Shown: in pieces, positions 1,015-40,487 of the stretch
Layout of the letters: each line of letters opens with the position of its first letter
Numbering within the stretch: the first letter of the stretch is position 1
Assembly (NCBI GenBank): GCA_964187785.1
Contig: OZ076411.1
Span: 20,646,001 to 20,710,000, forward strand
DNA: 64,000 bases
Direction of reading: 5' to 3'
From: Amphiscolops sp. MND2022
Taxonomy: Eukaryota
Translations under genes and position numbers: made by a program
Notes under the pieces: generated by a model
The model's database searches: none
What the model was told of the DNA's origin: nothing
The model's input: the letters and a program-made list of their open reading frames with translations, nothing else

Positions 1015-3782
1015 ATGGAAAGTCAGGGTAAAAACATGCAAGACATCAGAAACATCCTCAACGGATTAAATTTAACAATGCACAAATGCCACTTTGGCGC
1101 AACGGAAATTGACTTCATAGGCAGGAAAGTTACCCAGGAAGGAGTAAAACCTCAGAAGAAACGAATCACAACCTTTTGGGAGAAAACCAAATTCTCAAAA
1201 TCCAAAATAGCTTTACAAAGGTACCGTGGGTTCCTCATCTAATACCGAAATTATTTTCCAAGGTTATCTGAAAAGTTAATGTCAATCTCCCAAGGGGCCT
1301 TAAAAGGGACGAGATGGTCCAGGTTACTACAGAACTGTTACGGCAGTTCAACGCAATCAATAAAGACCTTGACAAATGCAGTCAATAGACCTTGAAGCAA
1401 CCTCTGCCAAACAGACAACTAGTCCTAATGACTGATGCAAGTTTCACGGCAGCTGGCTATGCAATATTAACTGAAGAAGAGCCAAATCAGAAGTACACTT
1501 CTGTCAAAAAACCCTATGCGCCAACTGCATATGGATCCAAAACATTTACTGCTTCACAGCTCAAAATGTCAAGATATGCAACATAATTCTTAGCCATATA
1601 TTACGCCTTGAAAGATTTTGGACATAACTTCTGGCGAACAACCGAACCGATTTTATATCTCACAGATACAAATCGGTAACAAGATTCTTCCAGACCAAGA
1701 TAAAACCTCCACCGCTCTGGAACGCTGGCGATTATGTTGTCCAATTTAATTTTATCATAGCCCACATCCCAGGCAAGAACAATACTGTGGCAGACTATCT
1801 GTACCGTATGAAAATGGACACTAAAGAAAAACTGGTCTTAAAAATACAAGAAGATGTCGAAACCAGACCTATCAAAGTTATGTCTATTCAGGCGGAGTGT
1901 CAGAAGAGGAACAAGTGTTCTCCACAGAAGAAGACAATGAGATGGAAGAACAGATTTCGGAACGCAAGAAACTGTCTAAGATTGGACCTAAGGTCGACGA
2001 GACTGTCAAACCAATCGACTGTCATACAAATCGACATATTTCAGAATACTGTTGACAAAGTAACGAGTTTTACTCAAAAGTTACGTCAAACCAATTAAAT
2101 CATATTAGAAAAATCCAAAATCCCAATTTTGCTACAATTGAAAGCAAGGATCTTTTAGGAAAAATACTCACAGGAAGTACTCCAGCATGATATCCAATTA
2201 AAACACTATCTAAATGATTTAGATAGATTAGTCCACAATATAAACACTAAGATGAAACATGACAAGTCAAACACCACCAACCACCAAATTTTACTGCCGA
2301 AACACTTACCGAAAGAACTATTGCTTGCCCTACATGGGACAGCGCATAGAGATCCTGGCATATCAAAATGCTGCAAGATATTCGACAGAAATACTACTAC
2401 CCAGGAAATGCAAAACACATGAAAAGCGAAATCTGCGCCAAAGATATGCGAGTCCGAAATAGTACAATACCGCTTGAAATACTATATTAATTTATAGATT
2501 GGGATGCAGGCCCGGAAGACGCCATGCAAATTGACCTGTTACCAAATCTCACCACTAGTGGTAAATACCACACAAAAATGATCACAATGAAGTGTTTTCA
2601 AGATACATACTCGCCTAACCGTTACTTGAGGCAACAGCCGCCAATACAGTAGAGGTGATAATTGATATAATGACATTCTTATTTGCCGTCAACACTCATC
2701 ACTGGCAAAGGGTCTGCTTTTACATCAACCATCTTTGCGGAAATAACTTGAAAATGGCCTCAGGGGATACCGACGACAATGGCACAAACATCTGCCACTA
2801 ACAGTGCTCAACTATAATGCTACATATCATTCTAGTATTGGATGTGAGCCGAGCAAGGTCTTTCATGGGCGTATTCCCTACAAGGTTGTGAATCAGAAAC
2901 TGGCGATAAATTGAAACGAAAATTTCTTAACAAGGACCGATTTTGCGGAGAGGACTTACAGCAAAGAACGCAAATGCTTATCGATTAAGCGAAGCAAAAT
3001 GTAATGCAGTCTTTTCTGAAGTATAAAGAATAATTAGACAGGAAGACCAAGGCTAAGACGCTCAAAGAAAAAGACTATTGGTTTTTTTACAACCTAAAAC
3101 TGGCAGCCAAAGAACCAAAAGAAAAAATGCCGTTCCGGGCCTACAGGTGGATTGGGCCATATGTCATAGAAATTGTACTGCCAAATGACAACTATATAGT
3201 TCGATGCTTGAATACGAACAAAACGCAAATCCTACACTGTATCAGGCTTCAAAAATGTGTCCACAAAACTCCATTACAGGACAACAACAATGATGAAGAG
3301 TTACAGCCAGACGACGAAAGAGTAAAACCACAAAACGACTTGTATACTATTTCTTGGCAAGTCGATTTTGATTACGAGGTGTTCGAGCGGAGAAAAGATA
3401 ATTGGCCGGATACGGCCATAAGCCTACCGAACGACGATGCAGGCGGCCGAGTAGACTATTACGTCACCGGAGAGAATGAACGCAGCAGCCTAAATGACAA
3501 TGAACGCAGCAGCGAGAAAGGAATGGAAGCGACGGCAGTGAGAAGAAAGTAAAGCTGAGATCGGCCAGCAGCCGAGACGTGACGTCCTCACCAGACGAGT
3601 CGCCTAATGAGGCTGAAAATGAATTAAATGACGCGGAGAACGCTTCAAATGGAGGCTCAGATATTACCGTGCCCCGAATATCAGAAATTGAAAATTCTGA
3701 TGAAGTTTCTAGCCCTAGAGAAGGGAAACACAATCTTCGACCTAAACCAATCTCCAACTTTACTGAAGAATACAGATACTAG
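1015..3782 (+). pseudogene. pol: Gypsy pol remnant (RT C-terminus, RNase H, integrase, GPY/F module)
   Basis: KCHFGATEIDFIGRKVT (RT end); LVLMTDASFTAAGYA...AYGSKTF (RNase H); HIPGKNNTVADYL; QIDLLPNL...VFSRY (integrase core); RWIGPYVI (GPY/F); C-terminus NLRPKPISNFTEEYRY*. Many stops and frameshifts. Confidence 0.9.
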
Positions 3783-3972
3783 TCAGACACTCAAATTGAG
3801 GAGTTCCGTTGCACCTTCTTTTTACACTTTTTTGGGGCCAAACTGACTATACGAACAATGAAACTCAATAACGCAGATACTACCCATTAGATGAAATATA
3901 TACAAATAAAACAAATCAACAACTAAATTACTAACTCAACAAGTCTACAAAGCAAATGTACATTATGTACAT

Positions 3973-6900
3973 TTATTCTTTAGAGGATCCTCGCTGGGGC
4001 TCCTTCACAGAGTCATTTAGCTCGGAAGAGGTCACTTGCCCAAATAAAACCTTGTTTTTGCTCTCACTCGAAGAACGTCCTTTGCGTCTCTCGTCAGAAC
4101 TAGACGACGAAGATCCTATTCGATGGACGGCTGGCATAGAAATGTCCCCAAAGATTTGAATACGGTGATGAGTATCTTGCGGAAATTGCTTTCACGAAAG
4201 AGTCAATATGGGACGAATGGTGACCAGTCACGATGTCACTGCTAAATTGTTCCGCACGTTCATGGAACTCCCTCTGTTATGGAATCCGGAAAATTGGTCA
4301 AATAGGACTGCGCAGCTAAAATAACATATGAAAAGCGACACTTGGGATCATTGCCATCAACCCATTGGAATTTGACTGGTGGTTGCTCAACCGCCTCCTC
4401 GGTAAGACATAGACAACCCAATTGATTAAGTGAAACAGGTTTGCGCATGCGAAGTTCAGGCATCGCTTTGAGGAAGGCCACCTTGTCCTTGAAGACTTCA
4501 GGAGAGTCTTTAAACTCCACGTAGGTGCTGCGGAAATGGTCTAGGAACCCCAGGTATTCGTCGCGAGTATCTTACTCAGGTGATTTGGGCAGCCATCCTC
4601 GAAGGCTAAAACTGTTGTACAAAGCTTGCCATTCCACTGACGATGTCGGCGTTGAGTCTTATGTCCTTTTGTAAAGTCTCCAACAAGAAAACAAAGTAAC
4701 TCCAAGCCTTTTTCACAGAATTTTTGACTATTTGAGTTTTAGATTCCACAATTGAGTTGGCTGACTTCTTGTCGCTCAAATCGCGTGTGGTCTTGACCCG
4801 ACAGGCTCCATCCGAATCAGACAGTAATTTCAAGCGATAAAGGTTTTCTCGGCTCGGTAGCTGCCTTAGCTCTCTGACCCTGTAACTCGAGCATGGCCAT
4901 TCAATCCATTGCTCCAGGGACATGCTTGGGAAATAAGGCCCCGTAGCACAGCTTTCTCACGAAACGATGTAGCTGACCAAAGTTGAGGAAGGCAGAATCC
5001 TTGGGCCCGGGTAGACTCAACATGAAACTCTTTGTATCTAAACAACGAAGGACGGGATTTGGAAGGAGTGGAAGGCTTGTATCAAAGAGTAAAAGGCAAT
5101 AAAGGGCCTAGTGGTCATGGTCAAAATCCCAAAGACAAAAGATACAAGACTAACAGTCACGAATGATTCTGCCAAATAGTTCCAGTTTAACAGGGAAAAG
5201 CTCATCCATGATGATTAGCCATTCAAGATTCTGGGGCTAAAAAGAACAAATCTTATTAACCTATCATATGGAAGTATTGGACATCATATAGTCTGAGCTT
5301 GATTAAAGGGAAAAAAAGTATCTTGTTCCTGACTCCTTGCAAGGGCTGTGTTAGAGTGGTCTTGACTATATAATTCAGCACGACCTTCCAGTTTGTGAGC
5401 AGCTCAGAGCTTATGGCAGGGATTGAACTCAAAGAAAGATCACAGGTTGAGATAGCCTATAACACCTGGGACTGAAAGTCGTCCTGTATAGAACAAAATC
5501 CTAATGAGAAGTAAATTACATACTTGTGAAAGTGCAGGCATTCCTGTGAACTATGGCTGTTCTTGACAGCCATTGGGGATATGAGCGGGAACTTAAGTTG
5601 AGAGAAAAAATCGAATTTCTCAAAAACACCAGCTCCCAGCTGATGCATCAGGACTTCCGGGGACAGAAAACTGAATCTGAAGGGATGATGTATACCCTGT
5701 TGAAATAGTGTGCATCGATCCAATAAGTGGACCACCTCGACTATGCACCCGGACGTCCTTGGTTGAGAAGCGAATACTGAGAGGAGTCGCGAAGTTGTAT
5801 TAAGTATGCCTGTGGCTGGGTCACAAGAAAATTGGTAAGGGATTAAGTTTACTCGAACCAGGGAACTCGCTTTCCAGATGTGGATGTAACTAAACTATAC
5901 AGTCCTTTCTTTTTGAACTCAAAGGAGTAGAAGCTAGATGACGACGAAATCTGATGAGCGATGTCTGCGATAGCGCACAGGAAGATGTGATGGAAATTGG
6001 TCTGAAACCGAAAATCACGAGGGGCACAAGATGTTTAAAGTACCTCAACAAAAACCATTGCGCGATGGAAAGAAACTTACTTTGAGTGCGGTTGCTCCTC
6101 ATAAATAGGTGAGAAAAACTCTTGACGATTGGCAGTCACGCTCACTTGGGGCCAACGGGTTTGTAACAGAAGGATGTTGCCACAACCAGGTACAAATAGC
6201 CCAACGAGAGAGATCTGCATTGAAAGTCGTTTCTCTGAATCATTAGTGAAAGCTCCAACACCAGCTATATATTCATCTTAAAATGGATACTTAATACCAA
6301 TGTCTGCTAATTGCACATTGTCGTAAAACGGTTCTTCTTTCTCGAGATCAGGAATGGTTGAAATGTGACCGTCTTGTCCTCCGACATTGTTGCTCGTCAC
6401 TCTGGTGATCTTGATCACCTTCAATGAATGCTCATTCCTCCTCCGTTGATCCTTGCGGAGATGAGATTCTGACTAGTATTGCCGAATTATTTCTCGAGCA
6501 GCCTTTGAGTATATGGAAACGTTGGTTTTGAAAGTTTGGCAATAGAATTTTTAATTGTTGTGCTCTCGATCTAACGGCCCGGTGACAAAGGTCTTCGTCC
6601 ATTTTATGAATTTGAAATAGGCCTCCTCCTCTACTTTTCCTGGTTTGCTCAGAAGTTTTCGTCTTTCACGTGGGGGACTGGGAATGGTAGGGCTGGTGTC
6701 CACTCACCGCGCTGAGCACTTCTGAAGGGACTTGTGGGTTAGACCGATTCTCAACGGTCTCTTCGCTTGTTGCATGTGTGGCAGCCATTATTTCAGATTC
6801 TGATGCCTTTTGTGGATCGTCCCTTGAGTACCCTTATTCTTCCGATGAGAGAGTCTGCTGAACTGGCGCAAAGTTTGATCCTCTATAGTCGTTATACTCT

Positions 6901-7012
6901 CCAAGGTTCTTTCCACGTCTGCAGTGGGATTTTCCTCAGTAGGTGGATTCATAACATCAAGCAATTGGACTGACGGATTTTCAGGCACATCAATATTCTG
7001 CTTTGACGACAT
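3973..7012 (-). pseudogene. ~1000-codon degenerate antisense accessory ORF of Gypsy A; BED-finger/hAT-transposase-like
   Basis: The frame from ATG 7012 stays continuous through about 6050 with a few stops. It contains KWTKTFVTG...KFYCQTFKTNVSIYSKAAREIIRQY*SESH (decayed C2H2/BED-like finger, ~6455-6610), LLTNWKVVLNY (~5370-5405), NADIVSGMASF, RDEYLGFLDHFR and LGCLCLTE, and ends in a Ser/Lys-rich tail at stop 3973-3975. The family call is pattern recognition only. Confidence 0.6.
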
Positions 7013-8344: not shown

Positions 8345-9151
8345 ATGCCCCAACAATTTCCGCTGGAAATTGAGGATAACCAGACCTCAGTGAGCAGCGT
8401 TATTTCTATCCCAAGTGACGAAGAGGACGCCATGGACTCTACGAGCTCAGCAACAGATGACCTGTCATCATCCGAAGAGGAGTCTGAGGAAATTGTCCTG
8501 ATGGCAAGAGTGCAGAGAGAGACAATTAGCGGACCCTTTTCCATTCCCTAGGCCGAGCTCCAAGGGAGGAGTTATGAGGGTTGTGACAACAAGTCCTGCA
8601 CTACCGCCTCATCCTAATTTTAACCATGCACACTTCTATTTTTGTCGTGGCAACGACCCAGTCCCTAGAGGGCGCAGATTAAAAGTAACCATGCAATCAA
8701 AATATGCAGAAACTTAGTACCATTCGCAGATACTCCGCTGTCCCCACCGCCTGAAGATAGATGGCCGAACTACGTACCAGAAACACCCGAATATGTATGT
8801 GACAAGGCAACGCTTACGGTGGAAACGATCTCTAGCCATTTTGACGAGATTGCTTTGACATAAACTGTGCCCTCGGCAGGATGCTCAGACTGCGTCGTAT
8901 GCGGGAAATCTGTATCGCAGATACAGAGTGAAACAACAGAAGACTACCTTCGCAAAACTGTGACGATTGGCGAAACAGCAGCTCAGAAAGGGAAACGAAG
9001 CAGAGCATTCCTTATCGGAATGGCCTCAAGGACTTTCCTTTTGATGCCAGGGGGATTGTCGCAGGCTGCCGCCTGCGATGGTAGTTGGTACTTTGTGTCG
9101 TACAATTACCATCGCACCCTGCCTGTGATAATCCCTGGACTGAATGGGTAA
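8345..9151 (+). pseudogene. Gypsy 3' accessory ORF (acidic/SIM-like N-terminus, CxxC domain) overlapping PPT and LTR start
   Basis: ORFs 8345-8551 and 8867-9151 are in the same frame, separated by a few stops. The C-terminal 65 aa align ungapped with the accessory ORF of the 24.9-37 kb array. Confidence 0.65.
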
Positions 9152-9440
9152 TTCCCTAATCATAATCTTCAAGGTTATTTTGTTCATGTTGCTAAATTCA
9201 TAGTACTTATGTTGCCGTGCAATTAGAATAATTGTTGCTTTTGTAGATGTAAAATTGTAGAAATTGGACACCAAGGCATACAGGCAAAGAAACGCCTTCA
9301 AATGTTTCCCTGCCTGGCGCGGCGGACATCAAGTCCTATTCAGTATTAACCAATCAGATCTCTCCAATTTAGAATTGATTTCATATATAAACTTGTACTA
9401 ATCAAACGAAGGCCTAGTAGGGCTTAGTGATAAGTTACAG
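9049..9440 (+). repeat. PPT (AGGGGGA) plus start of an LTR (TGTCGC at 9057); right boundary uncertain
   Basis: G-run followed by TGTCGCAG, at the same codon position (GGLS/AGLS) as the TGTCGCG LTR edge proven at 47973. Confidence 0.5.
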
Positions 9441-13496: not shown

Positions 13497-13520
13497 TGAG
13501 TTCAATCGACAAGAGAAGAG

Positions 13521-15062
13521 ATGGCAGAACCAAAACGGTTCGATATCAACAAAATCGAAAACTTTCTGAAGAACTCTGCTGACAAAGCCCAAACGTTGAG
13601 TTATTGGAAGGCAGCTGTTGAACACGGTAAGACTGTTAAAGAAATTGATGAGAACCTAACTAGCAATGTTGACGACAAGCAGATAGCAGCTTTACTGCTA
13701 AGACGAACAGATGCCATAAACAGGAGGGATCGGCTCATTAAGGCAGTCGAAAATGCGATCAAAGTCAAGTATCAACCGCAGATACCCGAAATCTTCTCAA
13801 CAGTGAACAAAGAAATGCAGAGCCGATTGGCTGAGTTGCAGCAGCAAAGCTCTAGCGTTGGAAGGGTACAAATGCTGATGTCAGCATTGCAAGACGAAAA
13901 TCAGATACTAAATTACTTGGATCTTGACGAAAAGAAACGCGCTATTGATAGACTAATGGATAGCAACAAAAAGTTGCGGGAAGATTCAATCGCAAATGGC
14001 AAAGTTGTCGACGAAGAAGATTATGCTGCAGCATGTCAAGAATTGCTGCAGAAACGGTCTGACATTAAAACGAAGATTGAAGATCTGCTGAAGACAGGAG
14101 AAGGAGGAGCCATTTTGCGAAGTCTTGAAGACGCTGAGCAAAGACTGGCAGACGCTCGGGTAAACTCAGCCGCAGACAAATCAAATGGCACTTCACCACA
14201 AAAGGAGCCCGAACCAGACGAGGAGCAGAAAGAAGACAATGGTCATAACGCGGATGACAGCCAAAAGCGAAACAAATGTGCTAGATCATTGCCAATAGAA
14301 GAATTGAGCATACACTCGCGAAGTAAAAGAACCAAAAGCAACAAAACGTCTGTGATTTCAAAAACATCAAGTGCAAGACGAGTTCTCGATTTGGAACTAA
14401 ACGCTTTGAAAGAGCAAGAAGAGTTGCAAAGTCGCCTGGAGAAACTCAGACGCAATGCGGAACAAAATGAAATAGCAGACTTACAAGAAAAGCTGGCCCG
14501 CAAAGCCAAAATAACCGAAAAGGAAATGGAGATGGCGAAAGTTACGAGTAGTTGTGGGTCTAGTTTCCGGAGTATCTCACCAGTCGAGACTCCAGACGAC
14601 AATCTGACGAAAGTCTCAGATTGGATGGACAAGACAGAAGAAGCTGAAAACGTGGCATCGACGACTAACGTGCCATCTGTATACCAGCAAACGTCCGTCT
14701 CAGCTCCAGTAATAACAGCACAATCGATGCATGAAGGACAATGCTCCGCGCTAGTGAGGGACTTGAATCCTCCAGTGAAACCGACTATATCCACCGAAGC
14801 CGCTAGTCGAGGTATTGGAAAGCACAGAACAAAGACTGTCATAGATGCTGTCAGTCAAAGTGCAACAGCACAACCAGAAGTGAAATTCGCCCCATCGAAG
14901 CCGTCGATGACTCTCAGTGCAGACCCGAATCGGTTACCGCCTACGTTTGGAGGCATCCAGAGTGGTGCATTTCAAGTACCACAGCTTGCGAACACACAAA
15001 AACAGTATTTGCCCAGTCAAGGACCAAACTTTGCCTCATCAGATCTAGCTTGCCAAAATTGA
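13521..15062 (+). CDS. gag: BEL/Pao gag N-terminal region (513 aa, coiled-coil and low complexity)
   Basis: Long open ORF starting at ATG downstream of the PBS; continues in the -1 frame into the DUF1759-like region. Confidence 0.8.
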   Translation: MAEPKRFDINKIENFLKNSADKAQTLSYWKAAVEHGKTVKEIDENLTSNVDDKQIAALLLRRTDAINRRDRLIKAVENAIKVKYQPQIPEIFSTVNKEMQSRLAELQQQSSSVGRVQMLMSALQDENQILNYLDLDEKKRAIDRLMDSNKKLREDSIANGKVVDEEDYAAACQELLQKRSDIKTKIEDLLKTGEGGAILRSLEDAEQRLADARVNSAADKSNGTSPQKEPEPDEEQKEDNGHNADDSQKRNKCARSLPIEELSIHSRSKRTKSNKTSVISKTSSARRVLDLELNALKEQEELQSRLEKLRRNAEQNEIADLQEKLARKAKITEKEMEMAKVTSSCGSSFRSISPVETPDDNLTKVSDWMDKTEEAENVASTTNVPSVYQQTSVSAPVITAQSMHEGQCSALVRDLNPPVKPTISTEAASRGIGKHRTKTVIDAVSQSATAQPEVKFAPSKPSMTLSADPNRLPPTFGGIQSGAFQVPQLANTQKQYLPSQGPNFASSDLACQN

Positions 15063-16102
15063 AGTTGGCAGAATTCTCAGGTGACCCATTGGAGTGGCCA
15101 GAGTGGTCACAACTATTCCAAGCAACCGTCCATGCAGCGAACATAGACGACAGTGTAAAAATGAACCACCTGAAAACAATGGTCACGGGTAAAGCGAAAG
15201 AGGCTATTGCTGGTCTGGGTTACCTTGCTGAGATGTACAATGTGGCGTGGAACGTTCTAGTTCGAAATTTTGGAAAACCTCAAATGGTTGTGAACGCGCA
15301 GTTGAAGCGAATCTATTCGTTCCCTCCGATGAAACCGTATGACGGAGCTGCATTGATCAAGTTCGCGAGAATAGTGTCGAGTTGCGTGAATGTCCTGAAA
15401 CAATTCAACTACGTGGGAGACCTAAACTCAGAAGGAGTTCTGGACAGTGCCACAAGGAAGTTAACACTGGACATGAAAACGAAGTGGCTGACTTATGTCA
15501 AGCAACTGAACCTGTATCAACCGGGACTCGCTGTGTTCAGTGAATGGCTCAATGATATAGCAGATGTTCAAGATGAATTGCTATTGTATTCGAACCCAAA
15601 TGCTGATCGGGCAAAGACGAGCTACAAGGAAAAGGCCGACGGCTCTACGTTCGCCTCCTCGACAACAAGCTCGGCAAATGGCAACTCGAATTACCAGCGA
15701 GAGTGTGCGCTGAAAGATGGCAAACATCCAATATGGAAATGTGAGAAGTTCAAGAAGATGAATGTCGAAGAAAAGCAACCAACTCAAATGCAAGCCGTGA
15801 AGTTCGCTGCCAAGACAATAACACTTGAAGAAGGAAAAAGGTGTTTTCAATTGGAAAAAGTTGTTGGATTCGTGAAGGAGTGTCTTCGATACATCGCTTT
15901 TCCTCTTGAACTTCATGGAGGTTCAAGGGGAGTTCCGGTGTACCAGAGACACACCAGCAGTGGTTTGTTGGAATGCTATCAGCCGTCAATAGACAATGCA
16001 AAGATTGGAACAAATGCTGCAAATATGTCATTTTGGAGAAAATATGATGTTGAGTTGAAAGAAAAACTGCAAACGACAGTGAAAATTGTAACAACTGGTT
16101 AG
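15050..16102 (+). CDS. gag: BEL/Pao gag core (DUF1759-like) fused to scraps of pol
   Basis: PKLKLAEFSGDPLEWPEWSQLF...KMNHLKTMVTGKAKEAI...RNFGKP; partial knuckle CALKDGKHPIWKCEKF; the sequence after that is a patchwork. No protease, RT or RNase H motifs found. Confidence 0.85.
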   Translation: MPKLKLAEFSGDPLEWPEWSQLFQATVHAANIDDSVKMNHLKTMVTGKAKEAIAGLGYLAEMYNVAWNVLVRNFGKPQMVVNAQLKRIYSFPPMKPYDGAALIKFARIVSSCVNVLKQFNYVGDLNSEGVLDSATRKLTLDMKTKWLTYVKQLNLYQPGLAVFSEWLNDIADVQDELLLYSNPNADRAKTSYKEKADGSTFASSTTSSANGNSNYQRECALKDGKHPIWKCEKFKKMNVEEKQPTQMQAVKFAAKTITLEEGKRCFQLEKVVGFVKECLRYIAFPLELHGGSRGVPVYQRHTSSGLLECYQPSIDNAKIGTNAANMSFWRKYDVELKEKLQTTVKIVTTG

Positions 16103-16283
16103 GTAATGGAAACTCGGGAATGGATGCAGTGGCACAAGCTAACCCTAACGTGCACACTCAACTGAGCACTGGCCACTGCAAGCAATTCGAGAAACGAGCT
16201 TGGAAGTTTGAACCTATCTCAATTCGATTACATGGAATGAACGAAAGCGCTCAGTTGAATACAATGGCATCCTACATGCAAAT

Positions 16284-16679
16284 ATGAATGCAGATGAATT
16301 TCCAGATGAAATATCGCTAATGGAAACGCGATTGAGTTCTTCAAAAGCACAAACAACAGCAAACTCGGAAAATGGGCCTTTCATAGGGCCGGGTGTATCA
16401 TGGGAAGAAATGATGATGCAACTTCAATCTTTTGGAAAATGGATTAAAGAAGAAGTTAGACAACTGGAAGTCAATGATTTGGTTTGGATAGTAGATGACA
16501 ATGTGAAAAGAGCACACTACAAGATGGGCAAAGAGTTGGAAGTCTATCATGGAAGCGATGGGCGAGTGAGATCAGCGCTGGTGAAAACTGAAGATAGATG
16601 GAAAACTGAAAAGACCAGTAAAGAAACTGGCACCCATGTTCTACGAAAGTGTTTTTCAGGAGAAAAACAAGGCCGGCAA
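16284..16679 (+). pseudogene. BEL/Pao integrase C-terminal region (DUF5641-like) and PPT
   Basis: KWIKEEVRQLEVNDLVWIVDDNVKRAHYKMG...YHGSDGRVRSALVKT; purine tract GGAGAAAAACAAGG just before the 3' LTR. Confidence 0.85.
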
Positions 16680-17628
16680 TGTTGGCGCCAGTCAATTGCA
16701 AGATCAGAAACTCAAATTTGAACGTGACTGATTAAACTTATAACTCAAAACACTTAGAAAACTTATCAAGATTTTAGTTAGAAATTTACAAGTTTCACCA
16801 GAAATAAAGCATTGCAAAATGTGCCACCCCCCCGTCCCGGTGAACCACTCCATCAATCACCTTGAAACTTAGAACACATATAGTGGTGGTGTTCCCCTAA
16901 CTTTTCACTCGTAACAAGCTACCCCGTATCTCCCCTGGGTTCAGAGCAATTAACACCCAAAGTGACCTAGGTCGGACCTCATGAAAACCCAATTTTGATG
17001 TATTAATTATTATAAGATTTTCTCATTTGACCTTGAAGGAAATGTAACTCCGTTGACATTTATCATATTTACATTATGTAAACATACTTTTTAACCCACC
17101 TGACCAACATGCCAGAACTACCACATTCTTTGTTTACATAGCCAATAACTTCATATTATGCTTTAAATGTCATTTTTTTATACAACATATTTTAACAGAT
17201 ATTTGCTTATATTTACCCGTAGAATTGTAAACCATATGTATAACATTATTAGATAGAGATTTTCTCCACTGTATAGCTATAGTCAAGTTGGGTCTCAGGA
17301 CCGCGAGACTAATTAATCAACTTCTCAATCTTCACAACTTTTCGCTAGAGTCAGAGCGACTAAGTAGCTACTCTCATAGTTGGAGAGCCGGAGCGCGTGA
17401 AGATACCGTGAGGGAAGTGTGTGCAGGATCACATCGGATCCAATTCAGTGCAAGAGGAATCGCTGGAGATACCACGGGTCACATCGGACCCACCAGTCAA
17501 AAGATACAGTCCTTTAAAACACGAAAACCAGCAATTGTTTAGTGACGGTCCACAGCACTAAGCAACGGATCAGGGCGGCGTAAAGCTTGTCAAGCCTCAG
17601 CGCAGGATAAAGGCAAGCAGCCGTTACA
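16680..17628 (+). repeat. 3' LTR of BEL/Pao element (949 bp)
   Basis: Copy of 12210-13164, followed by the TSD CTATG. Confidence 0.97.
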
Positions 17629-19429: not shown

Positions 19430-22400
19430 TCAGCTCTCTGAACGTTTTCCTTTTAAACTAACAGACACCAAACGTGACAGCTTTGATGGTAACCCTATGC
19501 TTTGGCCGGATTTTTTTTACGTTCCAATCTGACATCGACGTTACCAAACGACTCAGCGAGTCAAAAAGGTATATATTTTCAAACGTCAGTTTCCGGTTCT
19601 GCCAAAGAAGCTGAAATCTTTTCCGGATGCAATCCTCTCTTCTACAAAACTGCCGTTGAAGAAATGCGCCGTCATTTTGGTAATCCCAAACATGATGTAA
19701 AATCGTTCATCTCCGAACTGCAGAAGTTTCCCGCACCGCATTTATCAAGTCCTCCGTCATTCATAAGTTTGAACGTTTTCCTCCGCAACCTGGTTCAAAC
19801 TTTCGAAAATCTACAGTTTGATTCCATTCTTCGCTCAAGTTTTCTTTTGCAAACCATTGTCGCCAAATTACCAGCTGCTGTTCACATGAAGTGAAATGAG
19901 TACAATATTACAAGCTTCTCGAACGGCGCAATATTCCGCGACTTTTCTGAATGGTTGACAGTGTATGCCAGAGCTTGTGAAGATATGCCTGAGGCTACAA
20001 AACAGAGCGACCGTGAAAATGCCCGTATCAAAGCGACAACTTTCTCGGATGAAAAAGCAAGAAAAAAATGCTTCTGTCAATTGCGCTATTGATAAGGGCA
20101 CGAGAACCATCATTTGAGAAAATTTTCTAATTTTCTGAAAAAGGTTGTCCAAGAAAGGATCAATTTTGTTAGAAGCTCAAACCTATGTTTCAATTGCCTC
20201 TCACCCCGTCATAAGGTTGAAGACTGCACATCGACACTTCGATGTCAAGTCACCAACTGTGGAAAGCGACATCACACTAGCCGTCATCAGGCAAATCAAG
20301 GATCAGCGTTCACGTCCACTAAAACTGGTCATTCTAATCACAAAAAGACTCCGATCCAAAAAACTACCTCAAGCGACACTAAAATTGCCCAAAACAAGGC
20401 CTCATACTTCGAATCAAAAACAGCGTTCGATACAAGTAACATATTCAAGCATCACAAAGCTAGTCAACTTCAAAAGGTTCCCATTTGCGTCCATGGCAAA
20501 CAATGATCTGTGGACTGATACGCTTACCTCGATACATGTAGTACTGCATCTTATATAGTAAATCGCACCGTGAACAAGCTTGGTATTCAACCAAAAAGGA
20601 TAATCGAGTTTCAAGTAACAAGTATATATGAACAGTCACTTCTGCAAGCAGGCTTCGTGTCCCCGAAACTCTGAACCTACAATTTCAAACGACCTTTCTT
20701 CCTTCTGATCTAAGTTCACTCTATAAATCGCAGACCAACGCTAAACGAGACTTTTCAGAAATTCACACACCTCATTCGTGTCAACTTTCCGTGTTTACGT
20801 GACAATTCAGTCCTGCTTTTCTTGGGCATCGACGCATTTCAGAATATCGCAACACGTGAAAGTGAAATACTTACTACAAGATCTCGAAACAGATCCCCTT
20901 CGCTGTCCGACCACTGCTAGGCTGGACCGTCACTGGACCTTTGAGTGTGCGACATTCCTGTTCTTCCTCCCAGACAATTTTTATAGCTCATCACTTCCAT
21001 GGAAACGTCGTTCTTACTCAAATGCTAGAGTTTTTTATTAGCTGACTCAATTGGTACCGAGTCAACTACTCCTTGCAAACACAAATACCTCATTCACTGA
21101 GCAGCTCAAAGCTATATTAAAACATAAAACTCTTGGCAACAAAGATACACTCCTTCCACTCGGACCTTTTCTAGATGACGTTCGTCTTATCCGAGCAACA
21201 AGTCGTCTAACCGAAGCGCCCCTTCCATGGGCTACAAAGCACCCAACTATCTTGAACTCTTACAATCAAATCACGCGCCTCTTCATCCAACATTACCATG
21301 AGGTTTGCATGCATGCAGGCATCCATCATATGCGGAACTTCATTCAACAAACACAATACAATTTCCGATTGAAAACAACACTTCGCTCGCTCACTATCTT
21401 TCACTTGTTCTAAATGTCGCTGCTTCCGGGGTCAACAACTACAACCCTACATGAGCAGTCGGCCTTCCTGCATGTTCCCAGTTGCTGATAATAACTATTA
21501 TTATTTTCGAAGTCTCGGCATTGGTTTGATCGGACCTTTAGAAGTTGTGGAAAAACGAATCACAGCAAAAAAGTATGTTTGCTCTGCACCTGTCTTGTGA
21601 GCAGAGCTGTCTACTTAGAAGTTGCAGATTCCTTGAGTCAAGGCTCGTGCATGTCGGCCATTCCACATTTGTAGCCCGTCGAAGAGATCCAGAAAAATTT
21701 TTTCAGTGACAAGGCAACAAGTGTTTGCGGAACAAAAAGGAAATTCGTCGTCAACCTCTTGTATTCGATGACACGTTTGTAGGCAAAGAACTTGCGCGTC
21801 AAGGCATACAATGGCACCTGAATCCCCCTTATGGACCTCTTTTTGATGCTCGAAACCGATCCCCTTCGCTGTCCGACCACTGCTAGGCTGGACCGTCACT
21901 GGACTTTTGCGTGCGCGACCTACCTGTTCTACCTCCCAGACAAAGTTCGCAGCTCATCACATCCATGAAAACGTCGTTCTTACTCAAATGGTACAGAGTT
22001 TCTTAGTAGCTGACTCTGTTGGTTACGAGTCAACTACTCCTTGCAAAAGCACCCTCGCGGACCAGCAAGCATTGACGTTCATTGGAGAGAACGTGAGGCA
22101 TACAGGGCAGCGATACGAAGTTGGATTGACATGGAAAGAAAACGTTGAGTGGCAAATCAACTATCAATTAGCCAAAGCTCAATTTAAATTACAATCGCGT
22201 TCGTCCAAAGATGAAACCGTGCAAATCAAATACCAAGAAAAACTTTGCAAACAGATTTAGAAAAAAAGTATGTGAAACCAGTGGAGTCTCAAACAGTTTC
22301 GTATTTGCCTCATCACCCACTGTGTAATCCGGAAACGCCTAGGAAAGTTCGGCGTGTGGCAAATTCAGCGTCTTCTTTTCGAGGACAACCGTTGAATGAC

Positions 22401-24915
22401 AACCACTTGTCGAGTCCCGCCTTACTCCAAATTTGTTTCTTCTGCACCGTTTCCGCGAACGACTAATCGCTGTTATAGCAGATATTGGGGCCATTTTTAT
22501 GCAAAGTAGTTTACATAGAAAGACAGAGCCTCACTTTGCTTCCTGTGATTGACTGGAAATTCCATCCGTTAATGCCAGAACACATGTTTGATATTCGGTA
22601 CTGCCTGTTCTCCTACCACCGCTATTTTCGCTCGCAAACGATCAGCAGACGGTTTTGCTGCGGACGCTTTGGTCACAAAACAGTTGATTCACGACGCATT
22701 CTATATGGACGATTTAATTCATTACTTCCTCAAGACGGATTCAAGACTACCAAATTCGTAAGTAACGGCATTAAGTGCCTAGAATGTCCGCCCAAGGATC
22801 ACATTGTTCAGTCCCTCCCCCCACAGCGTGTCGTAAGCCTTCTTTGGGATTTACAAGACGACAAACTTTTCATGAAATTGGATTGAAATAATACAACTGA
22901 TGGAACCAATTTAACCTCACAAAAAATTCTGTCTCTGATTGCTTCCGTTTTCCACCCGTTAGGCTTTGTAGCACCAGCTCTCGTCACATTTAAAATCATT
23001 CTGCAGGAAATTTGGCGAACTGGAATTTCCTGGGACGAACGTTTGACAATCATTTTCCAGAAACGAATACAAAAATTGCTCCCGAGATCTCAAAATGTGA
23101 TCGAGTTTCTCTTCCGTGTTGCATGCAAGTCAACCGATAGAAATAACAGCTTTTTTGTAATGGGACGTTCCAAAATTGCAACCATTAAACAACAGAGCAT
23201 ACCACGTCTTGAACTGGATACTGCTGTTCTCGGCGTACGATTGAGTGATTTCGTTTAGTCAAGTTTACGCATTCTTCTGAGTTCTTTTACTTTCTGGACC
23301 GATAGTACAACAATGCTAACCTGGAATAAATCTGTTTCCAAACAAAAAACGTATGTATCCCATCGCATCGAAGAAAGTCTAGGAAAAAACAAAATCTCAA
23401 AAGTGGCAACACGTACCAGGCGCCGCCGATACAACTGATAAAGCCACTCGCGGCATTAAAACCGAAAACATCGAAAACGTTGGCTTTCACCGCCACCGTT
23501 CCTGCTGCTCCTTCAAAAAGAGTAGGTTTTCGATAACCCTGCGTCACACGAAACGAATGTCACTACTTTGTCCGAAGTCTTCGACTCTTTACATTTAGAA
23601 AACTACTCAACTTGGAGAAGGTTGATGGGCGTTGTTGCAAGGTTGTACCAGGCAATACAAATTTTCAAAGATCGTGCAAAACTAGCCTCAAATGCTGCTC
23701 GTTACGCAGAGGCTAGAATTCATATTTTCCGTTGTTCACAAAAGTCCTCACTCACTGAGCAGCTCGAAGCATTAATACAACGTAGAACTCTTGGCAACAA
23801 AGGCAAACTCCTTCCACTCGGACCTTTCCTAGATGACGTTGGTCTTATCCGAGCAAACGGTCGTCTAACCGAAGCGCCCTTTCCATGGGCTACAAAACAC
23901 CCAACTATCTTGAACTCTTACAATCACATCACGCGCCGCTTCATCCAACATTGCCAGGAGGCTTGCATGCATGCAGGCATCTATCATGTGCGGAATTTTA
24001 TTCAACAAACACAATGCAAATTCCGATTGCGAACAACACTTCGCTCGCTCACTATCTCTTACTTGTTTTAAATATCGCCGTTTCCGCGGTCAATAACTAC
24101 AACCCTACATGAGCAGTCGGCCTTTCCGCAGGTTCCCAGATGCTGATAAAAACCATTATCATTTTCGAAGTCTCGGCATTGGTTTGATCGGTCCTTCCGA
24201 AGTTGTGGAAAAAGGAATCACAGCAAAAAGGTATGTTTGCTTCTGCACCTGTCTTGTGAGCAGAGCTGTCCATTTAGAAGTTGCAGATTCCTTGAGTCAA
24301 GGCTCGTGCATGTCGGCCATTCCACATTTGTAGCATGTCGAAGAGTTCCAGAAATAATTTTTGTTTAGCCATTCAAACGAGCTCTCCTGATTACTCTGGG
24401 GTCCAGCTGCTTACCCCGAGAAGTTTTCGACACCATCACAGATCCAGTCCCTTCTCAACAGCCGAACTTTAACTCTTGTCAGCAGCGACATCAAAGATGC
24501 AACAACCATTACTCCAAATTACTTCTTACTGGGCCAACCTATCCCAGATGTTGCTGCCGCTATTTTCGGGGGAGCAATTCGCCTGCTCAGTCGCCTTGCC
24601 TCTCAGGAACATTTGAATAATATCTTGCAACGCCTGCTACACGAGATTACGCCGCAAAAGATTGGACGTCCGAAATGGAACAATCACAATGCACCGCTGA
24701 AAGAAGAGGATCTTGTGTGGATCCTGAATGACAACTGCCCTCGACGTGTCTGGATATTGGGTATCGTGGAAAAGAGGCACACTGGGTCCGATGGAGTTGT
24801 TCGATCATGCCTAATAAAAACCGCCCTCTGAAAAGTAACTATGACCGCAGTAAGGTTAAGCTTAGTGCACCCAAAACCATTCCTACTCAGGAGAATGTTA
24901 ATGACGCATCGACGT
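19430..24915 (+). mobile_element. Degenerate, rearranged BEL/Pao element(s): gag-PR-[INT]-PR end-RT-RNaseH-INT
   Basis: FDGNPMLWPDF (gag); CFNCLSPRHKVEDC..CQVTNCGKRHH (zinc knuckles); YLDTCSTAS (protease, ~20525); PFAVRPLLGWTVTG; FYMDD (22702); SLIASVFHPLGFVAP, SIPRLEL and FWTDST (Pao RNase H region); VHLEVADSLS (integrase); DLVWILNDNCPRRVWILG...GSDGVVRS (C-terminus). Confidence 0.92.
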
Positions 24916-26291: not shown

Positions 26292-27311
26292 TCACTGGTG
26301 CACTCCGTATCCGTCGCACCTTTGTGGACGCGAAAGTCCTGCAATTTTAAAGATATACAATGCGGCCTCCAGCCTATCGAAGAAGGCCCTTGATCTCACT
26401 GCACGCACTCTGACAGTCTCTCCGTCGTAAACGGTTGCAACAGGATAGTCTCCCGAGGTCTCTAGGGCCACTTGATCAAAAGTGCAACCACACCAGTCAC
26501 AACATCCAGAGACGTTGGGCATAACTGTGCGAAACAGCCGGAAGTTTTGCCTCTTGCTGACTGTCATCAGGAGAACGTTAGTGCTGTGTAGAATGTTAAA
26601 CGGGAACCCGAGTTGGGTAACTTGTTGAGATGGTCAAATAAGGTTGGCTGGGACGTCTACCATACATCTGGGAAGCAAATGTATTCCTATTGGGGTGATG
26701 TCGCTTACAACCAGGTATTGCGATTCTTCTGGTATAAACGGCGTTTGAAGATGTGTGCCTTCTGGCTCATGTGTTGAAAGATTTGTAATTTTCTAGCTAT
26801 TCATTTTAATTGCTCGGACGTGCTGGAAGTTGGATGATTCTTGCGAGAAATCCGGGAGGTATGTTGGTATTGGTCTGACTATTTCGATTGATTGTTGTCT
26901 AGATATCCTTGGTGTGGGTAGTATTTCAGCAATGAGTCGACCATATCTATTTATTTGTATTTCGGATCCTTCGGCACGGACTCTTGGTGACATACTCATT
27001 TCTTCAATTTCGCAATCTATGAAAGACAAAGGGGATTTAGAAGAAGACAACGGATTTTCTTCTATCAGTTCCATGGTATCTCGTTCGATACGGTTACCTG
27101 CAGTGTCGATGGTCCCAATTGATCATCTAAGTTGAAAGAAGGAAACAATGCAGCCGTTGCAGAACCCACAAAAGCTGCTATGATGTTAGATCCCATGGTA
27201 ACAACCCTAAACTTTTCGTCTAGTTGTGTGATGTTACCGGGTTCCTCTTCTCCAGATTCACTGGATATGTCGATTACGTCTAGGGAGATGGGCGAATAGC
27301 AAGAGATTCAT
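26292..27311 (-). pseudogene. Gypsy 3' accessory ORF, array unit 1 (SIM-like N-terminus, CxxC domain, reads into LTR)
   Basis: SPISLDVIDISSESGEEE...SGCCDWCGCTFDQVALETSGDY...GET...RSRAF...AGLSRPQRCDG; stops and frameshifts present. The LTR edge falls at 26335, inside the ORF. Confidence 0.65.
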
Positions 27312-30238: not shown

Positions 30239-31258
30239 TCACTGGTGCATTCCGGATCCATCGCACCTTTGTGGACGCGAAAGTCCTGCAATTTTAAAGA
30301 TATACAATGCGGCCTCCAGCCCATCGAAGAAGGCCCTTAACCTCACTGCACGCACTCTGACCGTCTCTCCGTCGTAAACGGTTGCAACAGGATAGTCTCC
30401 CGAGGTCTCTAAGGCGACTTGATCAAAAGTGCAACCACACCAGTCACAACATCCAGAGACGTTGGGTATAACTGTGCGAAACAGTCGGAAATTTTGCCTC
30501 TCGCTGACTGTCATCAGGAGAACGTTAGTGCTGTGGAGAATGTTAAACGGGAACCCGAGTTGGGTAACTTGTCGAGATGGTCAAATAAGGTTGGCTGGGA
30601 CGTCTACCATACATCTGGGAAGCAAATGTATTCCTATTGGGGTGATGTCGCTTACAACCAGGTATTGCGATTCTTCTGGTATAAACGGCGTTTGAAGATG
30701 TGTGCCTTCTGGCTCATGTGTTGAAAGATTTGTAATTTTCTAGCTATTCATTTTAATTGCTCGGACGTGCTGGAAGTTGGATGATTCTTGCGAGAAATCC
30801 GGAAGGTATGTTGGTATTGGTCTGACTATTTCGATTGATTGCTGTCTAGAGATCCTTGGTGTGGGTAGTATTTCAGCAAGGAGTCGACCATATCTATTTA
30901 CTTGTATTTCGGATCCTTCGGCACGGACTCTTGGTGACATACTCATTTCTTCAATTTCGCAATCTATGAAAGACAAAGGGGATTTAGAAGAAGACAACGG
31001 ATTTTCTTCTATCAGTTCCATGGTATCTCGTTCGATACGGTTACCTGCAGTGTCGATGGTCCCAGTTGATCCTCTAAGTTGAAAGAAGGAAACAATGCAG
31101 CCGTTGCAGAACCCACAAAAGCTGCCATGATGTTAGATCCCATGGTAACAACCCTAAACTTTTCGTCTAGTTGTGTGATGTTACCGGGTTCCTCTTCTCC
31201 AGATTCACTGGATATGTCGATTACGTCTAGGGAGATGGGCGAATAGCAAGAGATTCAT
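30239..31258 (-). pseudogene. Gypsy 3' accessory ORF, array unit 2
   Basis: Near-identical to unit 1; LTR edge at 30282. Confidence 0.65.
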
Positions 31259-33946: not shown

Positions 33947-34966
33947 TCACTGGTGCATTCCGGATCCATCGCACCTTTGTGGACGCGAAAGTCCTGCAAT
34001 TTTAAAGATATACAATGCAGCCTCCAGCCCATCGAAGAAGGCCCTTAACCTCACTGCACGCACTCTGACCGTCTCTCCGTCGTAAACGGTTGCAACAGGA
34101 TAGTCTCCCGAGGTCTCTAAGGCGACTTGATCAAAAGTGCAACCACACCAGTCACAACATCCAGAGACGTTGGGCATAACTGTGCGAAACAGCCGGAAAT
34201 TTTGCCTCTCTCTGACTGTCATCAGGAGAACGTTAGTGCTGTGGAGAATGTTAAACGGGAACCCGAGTTGGGTAACTTGTTGAGATGGTCAAATAAGGTT
34301 GGCTGGGACGTCTACCATACATCTGGGAAGCAAATGTATTCCTATTGGGGTGATGTCGCTTACAACCAGGTATTGCGATTCTTCTGGTATAAACGGCGTT
34401 TGAAGATGTGTGCCTTCTGGCTCATGTGTTGAAAGATTTGTAATTTTCTAGCTATTCATTTTAATTGCTCGGACGTGCTGGAAGTTGGATGATTCTTGCG
34501 AGAACTCCGGAAGGTATGTTGGTATTGGTCTGACTATTTCGATTGATTGCTGTCTAGAGATCCTTGGTGTGGGTAGTATTTCAGCAAGGAGTCGACCATA
34601 TCTATTTACTTGCATTTCGGATCCTTCGGCACGGACTCTTGGTGACATACTCATTTCTTCAATTTCGCAATCTATGAAAGACAAAGGGGATTTAGAAGAA
34701 GACAACGGATTTTCTTCTATCAGTTCGATGGTATCTCGTTCGATACGGTTACCTGCAGTGTCGATGGTCCCAGTTGATCATCTAAGTTGAAAGAAGGAAA
34801 CAATGCAGCCGTTGCAGAACCCACAAAAGCTGCCATGATGTTAGATCCCATGGTAACAACCCTAAACTTTTCGTCTAGTTGTGTGATGTTACCGGGTTCC
34901 TCTTCTCCAGATTCACTGGATATGTCGATTACGTCTAGGGAGATGGGCGAATAGCAAGAGATTCAT
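33947..34966 (-). pseudogene. Gypsy 3' accessory ORF, array unit 3
   Basis: Near-identical to unit 2; LTR edge at 33990. Confidence 0.65.
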
Positions 34967-36039
34967 ACTTTTTGAAGATGTAATTAGGAATCACAGATTG
35001 GCAAAGGCAAAGTTTTGAGATTAAAGACAAATGATTTACAAATTGATATAGACCATATGGTGATGAGTTTTTGTTTTCCTCTCGTCTGTGATGAAAACCC
35101 GTGGAAAAATTGAGTGGCATGTTCTTTGATTTCCTCTACTCCTTATAAGGATTTTGTGGAGACTCATGTCATGGGTTTCATCCACAATGAGTTATAAACA
35201 ACTTCCATAAAAAGTGTTCCATTTAGCACTTCAACTGATTTTCACTTATCTTAATCCATCACAACATTTCACCGAGTATTAAATGACACGTAAACAATCT
35301 AACCTAATTTCAAGCAACGAAACAAAATGTTTTGATAAAGGTATTCATTAAAAGAATCAACACTCGGAATTAAATTCATTTGACTTTACATGACGAGGTT
35401 TAAGAAAATTGAAAAATGTTGAAAAAAGTGTTTCGTTCCAGTTTTTGCCACTTTTAGACTATCCACTATTTTTAGGAAAAACACCTACAATATTCATAGT
35501 CCTGCACTTAAAAAGTGTAGGTGGTCCGAAAGACTAACGATCAAGTTTCAGTTTTGATGATAACTTCGTGCAGAAACGTTTTTCAGAATGTGACATCAAT
35601 TTAATATTCCGTCAACATATTTGTCAAATGAGCATCGGTTGAATATAGTGTATATTCGCATTACCATATTCCTTCTTGTGATAGCGAGTATATAGTTTCT
35701 TTGGCTGCATTACGTAACATCAGCTTGTTCATTCATTTAAATTGATTCTCGTCGTTGGAACAATTCTCTGCATGGACATAGTGAATAGCGCATACTGCCG
35801 CATACTCGTTATTGCTCGAAACGTATGCTGCCGCATACTTTGTTTGTATTAATTTCCGCATACTGTCGCATACTCGTCAATGCTCAAAACCTATGATGCC
35901 GCATACTTGGTTGTATTGGATTCCGCATACTGCCGCACACTTGTCAATGCTCGAAACGTGTGCTGCCGCATACTTGTTTGTATTGAATTCCGCATGCCAT
36001 TGCATGCTTGTTTTCACTCGATGGTAACACATAATTATC

Positions 36040-36895: not shown

Positions 36896-38079
36896 GTAGC
36901 GAAACGAAGAACCAGCAGGCAGAGATAAAAACCCCCAACAACACAGTGCTTCACGGGGCTTCCTTTCTTGTTTGAGAGCTGCTATCGGTGAGTTCAGCCG
37001 ACTTTTGTTTTGGAATATTGAAGTTTGTCCAACTTATTCATTGGAAAATTTGAAATAACTACACAGCTGGCCAGGCTGGCAGGAAATTTAGGAAATTTCA
37101 GATTTTTCGAAACGTTTTCGCTTCTGATTTCTCAGCGGTTGTGTTGTCAATTATTTCCTGTTACCGCGTCCGGTAAACGTTGATAATAAACTACATTCGC
37201 TCGAATTCTCATCTGATAAAAGAGCAGCGAACACGAAAGGATTTTCCAGGGAGGGCATTCTATGACCTCGTGAAGATAAAAAAATCCATGGTCTAGCAAT
37301 TCAAGAAGCAAAAACGGTAGCAAAGGAAACCTATCCTATCGCACCTCAATTTGCCGCTTGTCGACCTTTAACTCGGCAGAATTCTGTGCTAATATTGTTG
37401 CTACTACGAGCTCCACTGAAGGGTTCCTTTCACAAATCTCTATCAAAGAAATTGAGTTGAGAACCGGAGGTCACATCAACAGCCTCACTGGGGTTTATGA
37501 TGTACTGATGCGGTTGTCAAATAACAGTCAAATGCCCCCTCTAAATTGGAGCCATCAATGTCTTATCGTAAGTTCCTTTTCGACTTTTTTTGGTCTTGAT
37601 ATTTGTTTACCCCAACCTTCATCCTTTAATTTCACGAGGTCATTAACTAATTCAATCCAATAATTTGTTTTGTTGGCAGGGAATTTTCGTCCATATGTTC
37701 CGACAGCTCTTGAATTAATGTGTGACAACTATTGTCACATCTGGAAGTTACTTTTTGGCGTTTGAACACACCAGCACTAACTCCTTTCTGATCCTTTGTT
37801 TCTGGTCCGGAAAAGTTTTCCATCAAAATTGCCTTGGGACAGCATCTACAGAGATGCTACTCTCAAGAGAAAAACTCACACTGATCTTTTTCTTTCCTTA
37901 GTCTTTTCGAGGTTCCCCTTCCATGTGCTGCATTTGTCGGAGCTGGAGAGAAACTCAGCGTTGGATTATTGTCCTCCCTGCCAGGAGTGAAGACACCCTC
38001 TTCTACTGTCTACACCTTTAGTCGTGAGGAGTTAGAGCGAATTTTAGCCTCCCCAACAACAAAAACTTTTGAACGGCAT

Positions 38080-39060
38080 GATTATTGCATCATTTTTGAC
38101 TGTTTGCTAATGAAACTGCGAACAGCGCGTGACCAGTAATGGCTACAAATACTGCCAATTCTACACAAGTTGACATTTTCTCTTGTTTTATAATACAATT
38201 GATTCGTATTCATTGTTTTATAATTTGTTGTTTTTGCAGTAAGTACACAGCCTCGAATATACACTTGCTGAAGCATCATTCCTCATTGAAAGTCTGTCTG
38301 TCAATTGGAAGCGAGTTCGCGAACACATGACACGGGTTACCCGTCTACCTGCTTATCGTTTTCAAATGAGAGAGGTTGTTTTCATCACATTTTCCAAACC
38401 TTTGTAACCCTACCTTTTCCTAATCGGTTTCATTTTGTTTCAGCCAAAAACGCTCGATCGATGAGTGCTTCCGATTCGATACAGCGTGTCTCGCCAGACT
38501 CTTTATCATCAGGTGCGTCCTTGTCAATTGTTAGTCTCTTCCTTTCATAAGTGTTGTTTGCGGTCACTATAGGCTGGTTGAAAATGTTCCTTGGGCAAAT
38601 CCTCTTGTAGGTTAACTTTCCATGATCATTTTCGAGTTTTCGATTCCATTTATGATTTGTCAGATTTTTTCAAGTAAAAATCAATCAGGCAGCCGCATTC
38701 TTCATTTTTTGATTTTCTAGCACTCGCATACACATACCAGCTATTCAGAACGCTGTATAATTATAGTCCCATAATCTGTACGGCGGTATGCAAGGTGATA
38801 CCTGTTTTCCACATGGTGCCGTATATACGTCGCACCTCGATCCGCATAGTGACGTATAATTACTTCCGTTATCCGAATAGTGGCGTATACTCGTCATGTC
38901 TCGATCCGCATAGTGACGTAAAGTCTCGTCATGGCGCTTTGTTCCGTATAGTAACGTATACTCATCATTTATCAAACCGCATAGAGCCGTATAATTGCCA
39001 TACGCAGTAGTGTGTAAAAATGAGTACTCTCAATCTGCTTTCAGCACAATGGCGTATGTC
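38080..39060 (-). mobile_element. Fragment of another Gypsy LTR/leader (TGACGTA-rich block) and possible gag start
   Basis: CGCATAGTGACGTATA motifs resemble those at 25940-25990 and 47550-47700, but the flanking sequence differs. Downstream is a decayed minus-strand frame PRNIFNQPI...RKRLTIDKD...ESGET...LAET. Confidence 0.4.
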
Positions 39061-39384
39061 ACCTGTTAAAACACTTTCGTAAATGTTGACTCTCTTCTTT
39101 CTACTTGATAAGGTTTACATTTGATGTGATTTCCACTGAAGTAGTGATTTCTAATGATTTGATTTCTGGGACTATTGCATTTGAATGTAAAAGTACTGGC
39201 TCTGTTTACAGGTGGGTGTAATTTCTTTGTTTTTTAAGACAATTCTGTTTCTCCGAGCTTCAAATTCAGGCTAGTGGTAGATTTCGACTGTTTAACCAAT
39301 TTCACAGTCTTCATTTACAGTCAATTTCAAACCATTCTCCTTTTAGGAAGAATTTCAAATTAGGATTACTTTTTACAACTGGAC

Positions 39385-40318: not shown

Positions 40319-40487
40319 TTGACACTTACTGTTTTTCTTTTATTCAATTTATTTCTTTGTATACATTTCAAGTGATTCCCAGTTTTTACTTGGATGGGAT
40401 TGATTGATTGTTTGATAACAGTTCATTCTCAGAAGATGAAAGAGGTGACAGGAGAAGAGAGATAAAGGTTCTTCTGCCATTTTTGTT

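Follow-up and report, generated by a model that had tools for sequence, protein, structure and literature searches.

A spliced antisense gene with a predicted transposase-like fold in two lineages of Gypsy retrotransposons

Two Gypsy elements, A and B, lie in the 64,000-nucleotide stretch of DNA analysed here (the window; positions 20646001-20710000 of contig OZ076411.1, in a 1.07-Gb genome), and in both of them pol is followed by a gene on the opposite strand. The locus raises the questions of whether this gene belongs to the elements, where it came from and what it might do. A first-pass annotation had described it as a BED-finger, hAT-transposase-like gene, and much of the layout that it gave holds: pol of A and B ends in the motifs quoted for them, the spacer put at 170-190 bp measures 191 bp in A and 169 bp in B, and the two antisense genes have their three common motif blocks at the places stated. 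As it had also said, the two genes show no obvious DNA similarity (best blastn match 13 bp, E 0.4; nothing with tblastx). The single long ORF that it had drawn is found in neither copy. The gene is spliced and both copies are decayed, with stops and frameshifts, so that the longest open pieces are 145 amino acids (A) and 204 amino acids (B). The limits given for the gene of B, 39385-40318, were too short, because its finger region and exon 2 lie upstream of 39385 and extend it to at least 37177. Family profiles match both window copies with best E-values of 1.5e-30 (A) and 1.5e-48 (B), which puts their common layout far above chance. The features, in positions of the window, are as follows.

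3034-3781, plus strand: decayed pol 3' end of element A, encoding the integrase C-terminus; intact relatives have the Gypsy domain order PR-RT-RH-IN
3782-3972: spacer of element A, 191 bp, between convergent stops
3973-5037, minus strand: final exon of the gene in copy A, encoding the helical C-terminal half, in three pieces with six stops; acceptor AG ends at 5038
5158-5455, minus strand: what is left of the small middle exon(s) of A, with the LTNWKVVLNY block; approximate limits, read by eye against intact copies
5515-6001, minus strand: exon 2 of A, predicted RNase H-like beta sheet (fold taken from a relative); acceptor AG ends at 6002; lower limit approximate
6081-7012, minus strand: exon 1 of A, with low-complexity N-terminus, basic NLS-like motif and decayed CxxC..H..H finger (about 6703-6476); donor GTAAGT at 6080
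8669-9148, plus strand: what is left of sense ORF4 of A, continuing into the first part of the 3' LTR (LTR-like pieces at 9057-9316)
33950-34962, minus strand: ORF4 of element B, which recurs at 30242-31254 and 26295-27307
35798-35966, plus strand: CCGCATA motif array upstream of the antisense gene of B
37177-37660, plus strand: finger region, exon 1 of B, broken; beyond the coordinates first annotated
37680-38172, plus strand: exon 2 of B, two pieces with stops
38250-38529, plus strand: exons 3 and 4 of B; limits approximate, read by eye against an intact copy; donor-like GTTAGT at 38530
38842-38977, plus strand: CCGCATA motif array in the last intron of B
39249-40318, plus strand: last exon of the antisense gene, copy B, in four pieces
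40319-40487: spacer of element B, 169 bp
40488-41000, minus strand: pol 3' end of element B
46314-47974, minus strand: 5' LTR region of B; motif copies at 47490 and 47581

Between 24907 and 36900 there are three repeats, each a unit of 3.7-3.9 kb, of the 3' end of element B (ORF4, part of the LTR and motif arrays). Elsewhere in the window are decayed Bel/Pao-like elements (DUF1759, DUF5641) at 13500-16721 and 19493-24831, and a tandem array at 54419-64000 of at least 12 units of 819 bp that are 95-98% identical, each with a 119-codon open frame without a Pfam match. Bel/Pao elements occur mainly in metazoans, and it is on this basis that the host is called probably animal below.

Searches with short pieces of A and B gave at least 150 scored matches each, out of 3,606 and 1,251 first-look candidates; these figures are not copy numbers. 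Many family matches have open frames of 370-410 amino acids, and 20 elements with open frames were examined. They consist of LTR, gag (~570 amino acids), pol, about 180 bp of spacer, antisense gene, sense ORF4 and LTR, and the exons of the antisense gene are open in young elements. TG..CA LTRs, TGG-starting PBS-like sites, purine tracts and, in intact relatives, a pol order of PR-RT-RH-IN (by Pfam) identify them as Ty3/Gypsy. LTR pairs, seen in 18 of the 20, are 94-100% identical, and a 5-bp target-site duplication (TSD) flanks each of the seven elements with both outer ends in view; hence the family was recently active. The seven duplications have no common sequence.

The elements have further features of their own. 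The sense ORF4 between the antisense gene and the 3' LTR, overlooked in the first annotation, encodes about 300-370 amino acids with an acidic N-terminus and a conserved CxxC near the C-terminus, and its stop lies inside the 3' LTR (L020:7260-8156, L036:7794-8891). It was present in 19/20 A and 15/15 B loci picked by integrase and had no significant Pfam match. A dUTPase-like domain lies between protease and RT in lineage A pol (L019:6764-10000, L027:6734-10000); it scored above the Pfam cut-off in both of these and below it in L021, and was not detected in the four B pols searched. The gag ORF begins within the LTR, some 570 bp in and ahead of the PBS-like site (L021:3940-5661 and 5091-6800), so each 3' LTR repeats the start of gag. 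We rejected the reading of the antisense gene as an env gene, given its orientation and the lack of an env Pfam match.

To count the gene independently of its own sequence, we sampled the 150 listed integrase matches of each lineage at fixed intervals, every 7th row starting at row 10 and every 10th starting at row 5. All 35 loci sampled in this way (20/20 A and 15/15 B) carried the gene, with the three tested exon blocks in antisense orientation; this count covers lineages A and B, more distant Gypsy lineages having been left out. Retention in both lineages, as first proposed, is thereby confirmed, and no member lacking the gene turned up. The decay of both window copies could suggest an independent nested hAT insertion or neutral passenger DNA, and such a reading has to face this constant presence as well as the open exons of young elements. 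A nested insertion should also be flanked by terminal inverted repeats (TIRs) and an 8-bp TSD, and no 11-bp inverted repeat with an 8-bp TSD was found around the gene in any of 15 elements or in either window copy. Together with dN/dS values well below 1 (see below), these results largely refute the reading, to which we give hardly any credence.

The antisense gene has four to five exons. Exon 1 has a phase-0 donor at its end, and all 17 first introns examined, 75-146 nt long, were bounded by GT..AG. An AG precedes exon 2 wherever this exon was found (18/18; it was not found in 2 of 20 elements) and the last exon in 20/20 elements; between these, inspection by eye placed one or two small exons. 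The acceptors of exon 2 and of the last exon are at equivalent positions and in the same phase in both lineages, so that splice sites are common to lineages whose proteins are about 22% identical (RT 81%), and intron-exon splice sites are still present in the decayed copy A of the window. Since the gene is antisense on the sense genomic RNA, its introns would not be removed from that RNA and could thus persist through reverse transcription. For the last exon, 4 of 66 pairs were usable and gave dN/dS of 0.06-0.20; for exon 2, 5 of 66 gave 0.04-0.31; and for the finger region, 1 of 51 gave 0.20. The other pairs were saturated; the range is thus 0.04-0.31 in 10 unsaturated of 183 pairs. The antisense gene is under purifying selection. 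It is a real and unusual gene of the element, and almost certainly one that is kept by selection.

Purifying selection goes along with rapid change. Between lineages A and B the RT is 81% identical and the last exon 22%; within lineages the values are 95-96% and 60-65%. The deep divergence of the protein is thus a mark of fast evolution and gives no date for the capture, which had been proposed to be old. Some closely related elements differ mainly in this gene: L016 and L024 have 94-97% identity over LTR, gag, pol and ORF4 and about 55% over the antisense gene, and L101 and L102 are 95-99% identical to L020 in integrase and ORF4, with a last exon that cannot be aligned. The gene thus moves as an exchangeable cassette between elements that are otherwise 94–99% identical. 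Trees of RT and last exon have 2 of 13 splits in common (2 of 18 elements were dropped for a short RT), and the A/B split is the only one for which co-phylogeny of RT and antisense gene is established. Fast evolution and cassette swapping fit an arms race.

What kind of protein does the gene encode? The order is a low-complexity N-terminus, a basic NLS-like motif and a CxxC-x16-H-x5-H finger, followed by the parts encoded in exon 2, the middle exons and the last exon. The cysteines and histidines of the finger are conserved in 132-135 of 135 rows, and the finger with its flanking residues is the best-conserved part across both lineages. The sequence comparisons proposed earlier, against zf-BED, DUF4371 and Dimer_Tnp_hAT, gave no Pfam match in any of 22 or of 73 proteins, the only hit being a sub-threshold C2H2 match; PF04195 (TRP28) was likewise unmatched in these 22 and 73 proteins. 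No match came from an HMM search against the genome's own hAT ORFs, nothing meaningful from a PDB sequence search with exon profiles, and no usable match from the ESM Atlas. A search of the same genome for DUF4371 and for a hAT C-terminal motif gave no match either, a result that is uninformative. With hhalign, in local and global mode, neither exon 2 nor the last exon matched the Tip-type profile (111 sequences) or the Ac-type profile (16 sequences); the control of Ac versus Tip profile gave P 99.4. The finger gave a weak match to that of the Tip type (P 6%; score 18, the best shuffle reaching 9) and is slightly closer to this Tip/ZMYM1-type finger than to the BED finger originally named. A profile of the last exon collected 756 clusters at 50% identity (E<=0.001), and the ten that we checked were all unnamed ENA proteins.

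Because no spliced full-length protein occurred among 120 listed matches, of which the longest were intron read-throughs, there is no full-length fold, and exon 2 and the last exon were modelled separately. All structural scores given here lie under the tools' trust marks. The exon 2 model (pLDDT 69) has the order helix-b1-b2-b3-a-b4-a-b5, followed by helices, and the last exon model (pLDDT 66) is all helical. An RNase H-like core is predicted in exon 2 from this model. In Foldseek, the matches of exon 2 to integrases and Hermes had E-values between 2.5e-3 and 7e-3, so that none reached 1e-3; Hermes 8sjd_B had the best TM-score among the listed rows (TMq 0.34, E 6.6e-3), with integrases ranking higher, and a Pandoravirus hAT protein appeared in BFVD at rank 27 (TMq 0.31, rmsd 3.6). 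VIA aligned exon 2 with Hermes 158-265 (Z 5.8, rmsd 3.2, 99 aligned residues, rank 23), behind kinases and uS11; the IS256-type ISCth4 scored above Hermes (Z 6.9). For the last exon, Foldseek and its VIA second look found nothing, and VIA placed it on Hermes 367-599 (Z 4.9, rmsd 7.0, 175 aligned, rank 23), the only row spanning the whole model, with helical bundles ranking higher. By eye, no PDB chain other than Hermes 8edg_A ranks among the first 50 for both models (entry 9evs is in both with different chains). The two Hermes ranges are collinear, and the gap between them fits the unmodelled middle exons. The structural comparison with Hermes that had been proposed thus yields a consistent order and a chain found in both lists, at weak scores.

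The catalytic residues do not seem to have survived. With positions judged from model strands and hAT motifs rather than from a residue-level alignment, at most 18 of 129 sequences are acidic at the end of b1, the position after b4 has G73/D35/N21 of 137, and no acidic column lies around the CLCL block. A conserved D-D-E triad is thus predicted to be absent. By the defining features tested, the protein is not a hAT transposase, and we rejected a hAT transposon proper, for which DDE, profile match and TIRs with an 8-bp TSD are all missing. Descent is a separate matter. The gene could have been captured from a host or virus, in which case its finger would be of C2H2 type and its sheet a generic one of RNase H/actin-like form, or it could be a degenerate duplicate of the integrase; every sequence test against hAT was negative, and the top structural matches of exon 2 are kinases, uS11 and integrases. 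We consider such an origin unlikely, since two separate models match Hermes collinearly with a gap that suits the middle exons, the long all-helical stretch after b5 is unlike integrase, and the finger match to the Tip type stands above the shuffle maximum. The DNA-transposase ancestry first proposed thus draws on a weak likeness in structure and, for the core, finds no counterpart in a hAT sequence profile. We regard descent from a transposase of some DDE type as likely, and descent from a hAT transposase in particular as favoured with less confidence.

Clues to a function come from short motifs in lineage B. CCGCATA clusters occur in 25/25 B loci (9-23 copies in 10/10 elements, 4-24 in the 15/15 loci picked by integrase), where 0.5-1.0 copies per locus are expected, with a strand bias of 207 versus 5 in those 15 loci and spacings of about 10 and 33 bp. 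The arrays occupy three non-coding sites: the last intron, the zone upstream of the gene and the LTR. Lineage A has 0-2 copies in 28/28 loci (8 + 20), and no other motif array was found in the 8 lineage A elements searched, so the argument from binding sites covers lineage B only. Between the antisense gene and ORF4 we noted by eye non-coding blocks that are conserved, among them a CCAAT-like box, and, upstream of the ATG, donor-like sites (L016:6150-7250, L024:6260-7350, L026:6180-7300); together these suggest a divergent promoter and a 5' UTR intron. CpG observed/expected ratios were 0.72-1.03, and transversions were raised as much as transitions in 8 pairs (one being overlapping DNA that added no changes); with no clear CpG hypermutability, these data do not support a target of the DNA-methylation type.

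We infer from these observations that the gene is transcribed, that its product binds the arrays and that it has a regulatory role. An ancestor of both Gypsy lineages would have acquired a cut-and-paste transposase gene, most likely of hAT type, in reverse orientation; its ends and catalytic triad would have been lost and the gene kept as an accessory. It would probably be transcribed from an internal promoter between itself and ORF4 and then spliced. Summed exon lengths give a product of about 1,050-1,250 amino acids. This protein may be nuclear and bind DNA at the motif clusters in the LTR, upstream zone and intron of its own element, so as to promote transcription or, like VANC, to resist host silencing. 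This whole mechanism, of a dead, spliced and nuclear transposase derivative acting as a putative DNA-binding self-regulator, is our tentative proposal, with a little less than an even chance of being right. Its most specific form is more doubtful: a swappable, family-specific self-regulator derived from a dead hAT transposase that binds tandem motifs in LTR, promoter and intron, amounting to a VANC-like system in a probably animal genome, with a Class II enzyme inside a Class I element.

Other functions would also suit such a protein. It might be an integration or nuclear-import cofactor that holds the integrase-cDNA complex at particular chromatin. The CGCATA arrays would then be unrelated sites for a host transcription factor; they resemble the GCM site RCCCGCAT. 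The NLS-like motif, finger and transposase-like scaffold would serve this purpose, and lineage A retains the gene without arrays. Cassette swaps on a 94-99% identical pol and integrase, however, sit badly with a tight integrase partner, the absence of a common sequence in the seven target-site duplications also speaks against this function, and we hold a cofactor to be improbable. Alternatively, the protein could serve counter-defence by binding other proteins, acting on those of host silencing as a decoy or an inhibitor, with the dead transposase as a mere scaffold and recognition of the element's own DNA not its job. The very fast divergence, the 756 clusters and the cassette exchange would agree with this, and accessory TE proteins of Arabidopsis are reported to have higher dN/dS and more predicted host contacts (PMC13547354). 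That the finger and its flanks are the best-conserved part in both lineages speaks against it, and it too appears unlikely, if slightly less so. Many young copies, cassette swaps on a common pol background and a candidate binding motif make the function of the gene directly testable.

We found no description of such an element in the literature searched; Repbase, Dfam, subscription papers and supplements were outside its scope. Its parts have known counterparts. As in hAT transposases (Hermes) and their host derivatives (CGGBPs, ZBED and ZMYM1-like proteins), the protein would have, in this order, a finger, a predicted RNase H-like sheet, a helical insertion and C-terminal helices. hAT N-terminal domains are reported to bind short subterminal repeats (PMC10368747), and CGGBPs to escape Pfam and to have motifs that often contain CGG/CGC (PMC8097297); the lineage B motif contains GCGG on its other strand. 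Unlike hAT transposases and host derivatives, the antisense gene has no detectable core homology, no conserved DDE and no TIR or TSD, and its domesticator would be a retrotransposon rather than the host, as for CGGBPs, ZBED and ZMYM1-like proteins.

Plant and fungal Gypsy elements carry antisense ORFs (aORFs) whose origin and function are described as unknown in two papers, which report no similarity to other TEs and argue against a nested-TE origin (PMC7264820, PMC11963269). As in plant Retand, Grande and RIRE2 and fungal Boty (TRP28, PF04195), a conserved antisense gene lies between pol and the 3' LTR, and tandem arrays occur in the same region, here in lineage B (PMC7264820, PMC11963269). 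Gene23 of Grande is reported there to have its own promoter and a nuclear product (PMC7264820, PMC11963269). In contrast to the aORFs, the gene studied here has four to five exons, splice sites common across lineages, a finger and a predicted DDE-type fold, lacks a PF04195 match and is accompanied by a second, sense ORF, ORF4. The family is a case in which a nested-transposon origin of the antisense gene is plausible. Another parallel in arrangement is VANC of the Mutator-like VANDAL elements of Arabidopsis, a TE-encoded, intron-containing and fast-evolving accessory gene with tandem motif arrays in an intron and other non-coding regions, here in lineage B only (PMC5735166). VANC21 is reported to bind motifs in introns, intergenic and terminal non-coding regions of VANDAL21 (PMC5735166), and by analogy the array sites of lineage B match these binding places; sites for a host factor would explain them equally well. 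VANC differs in residing in a DNA transposon and in being traced to MAIN-like proteins (PMC13547354), and it acts on DNA methylation; no homology to VANC emerged from the general searches made with the antisense gene. If the antisense protein is an anti-silencer as well, it would provide a sequence-specific counter-defence in a probably animal retroelement.
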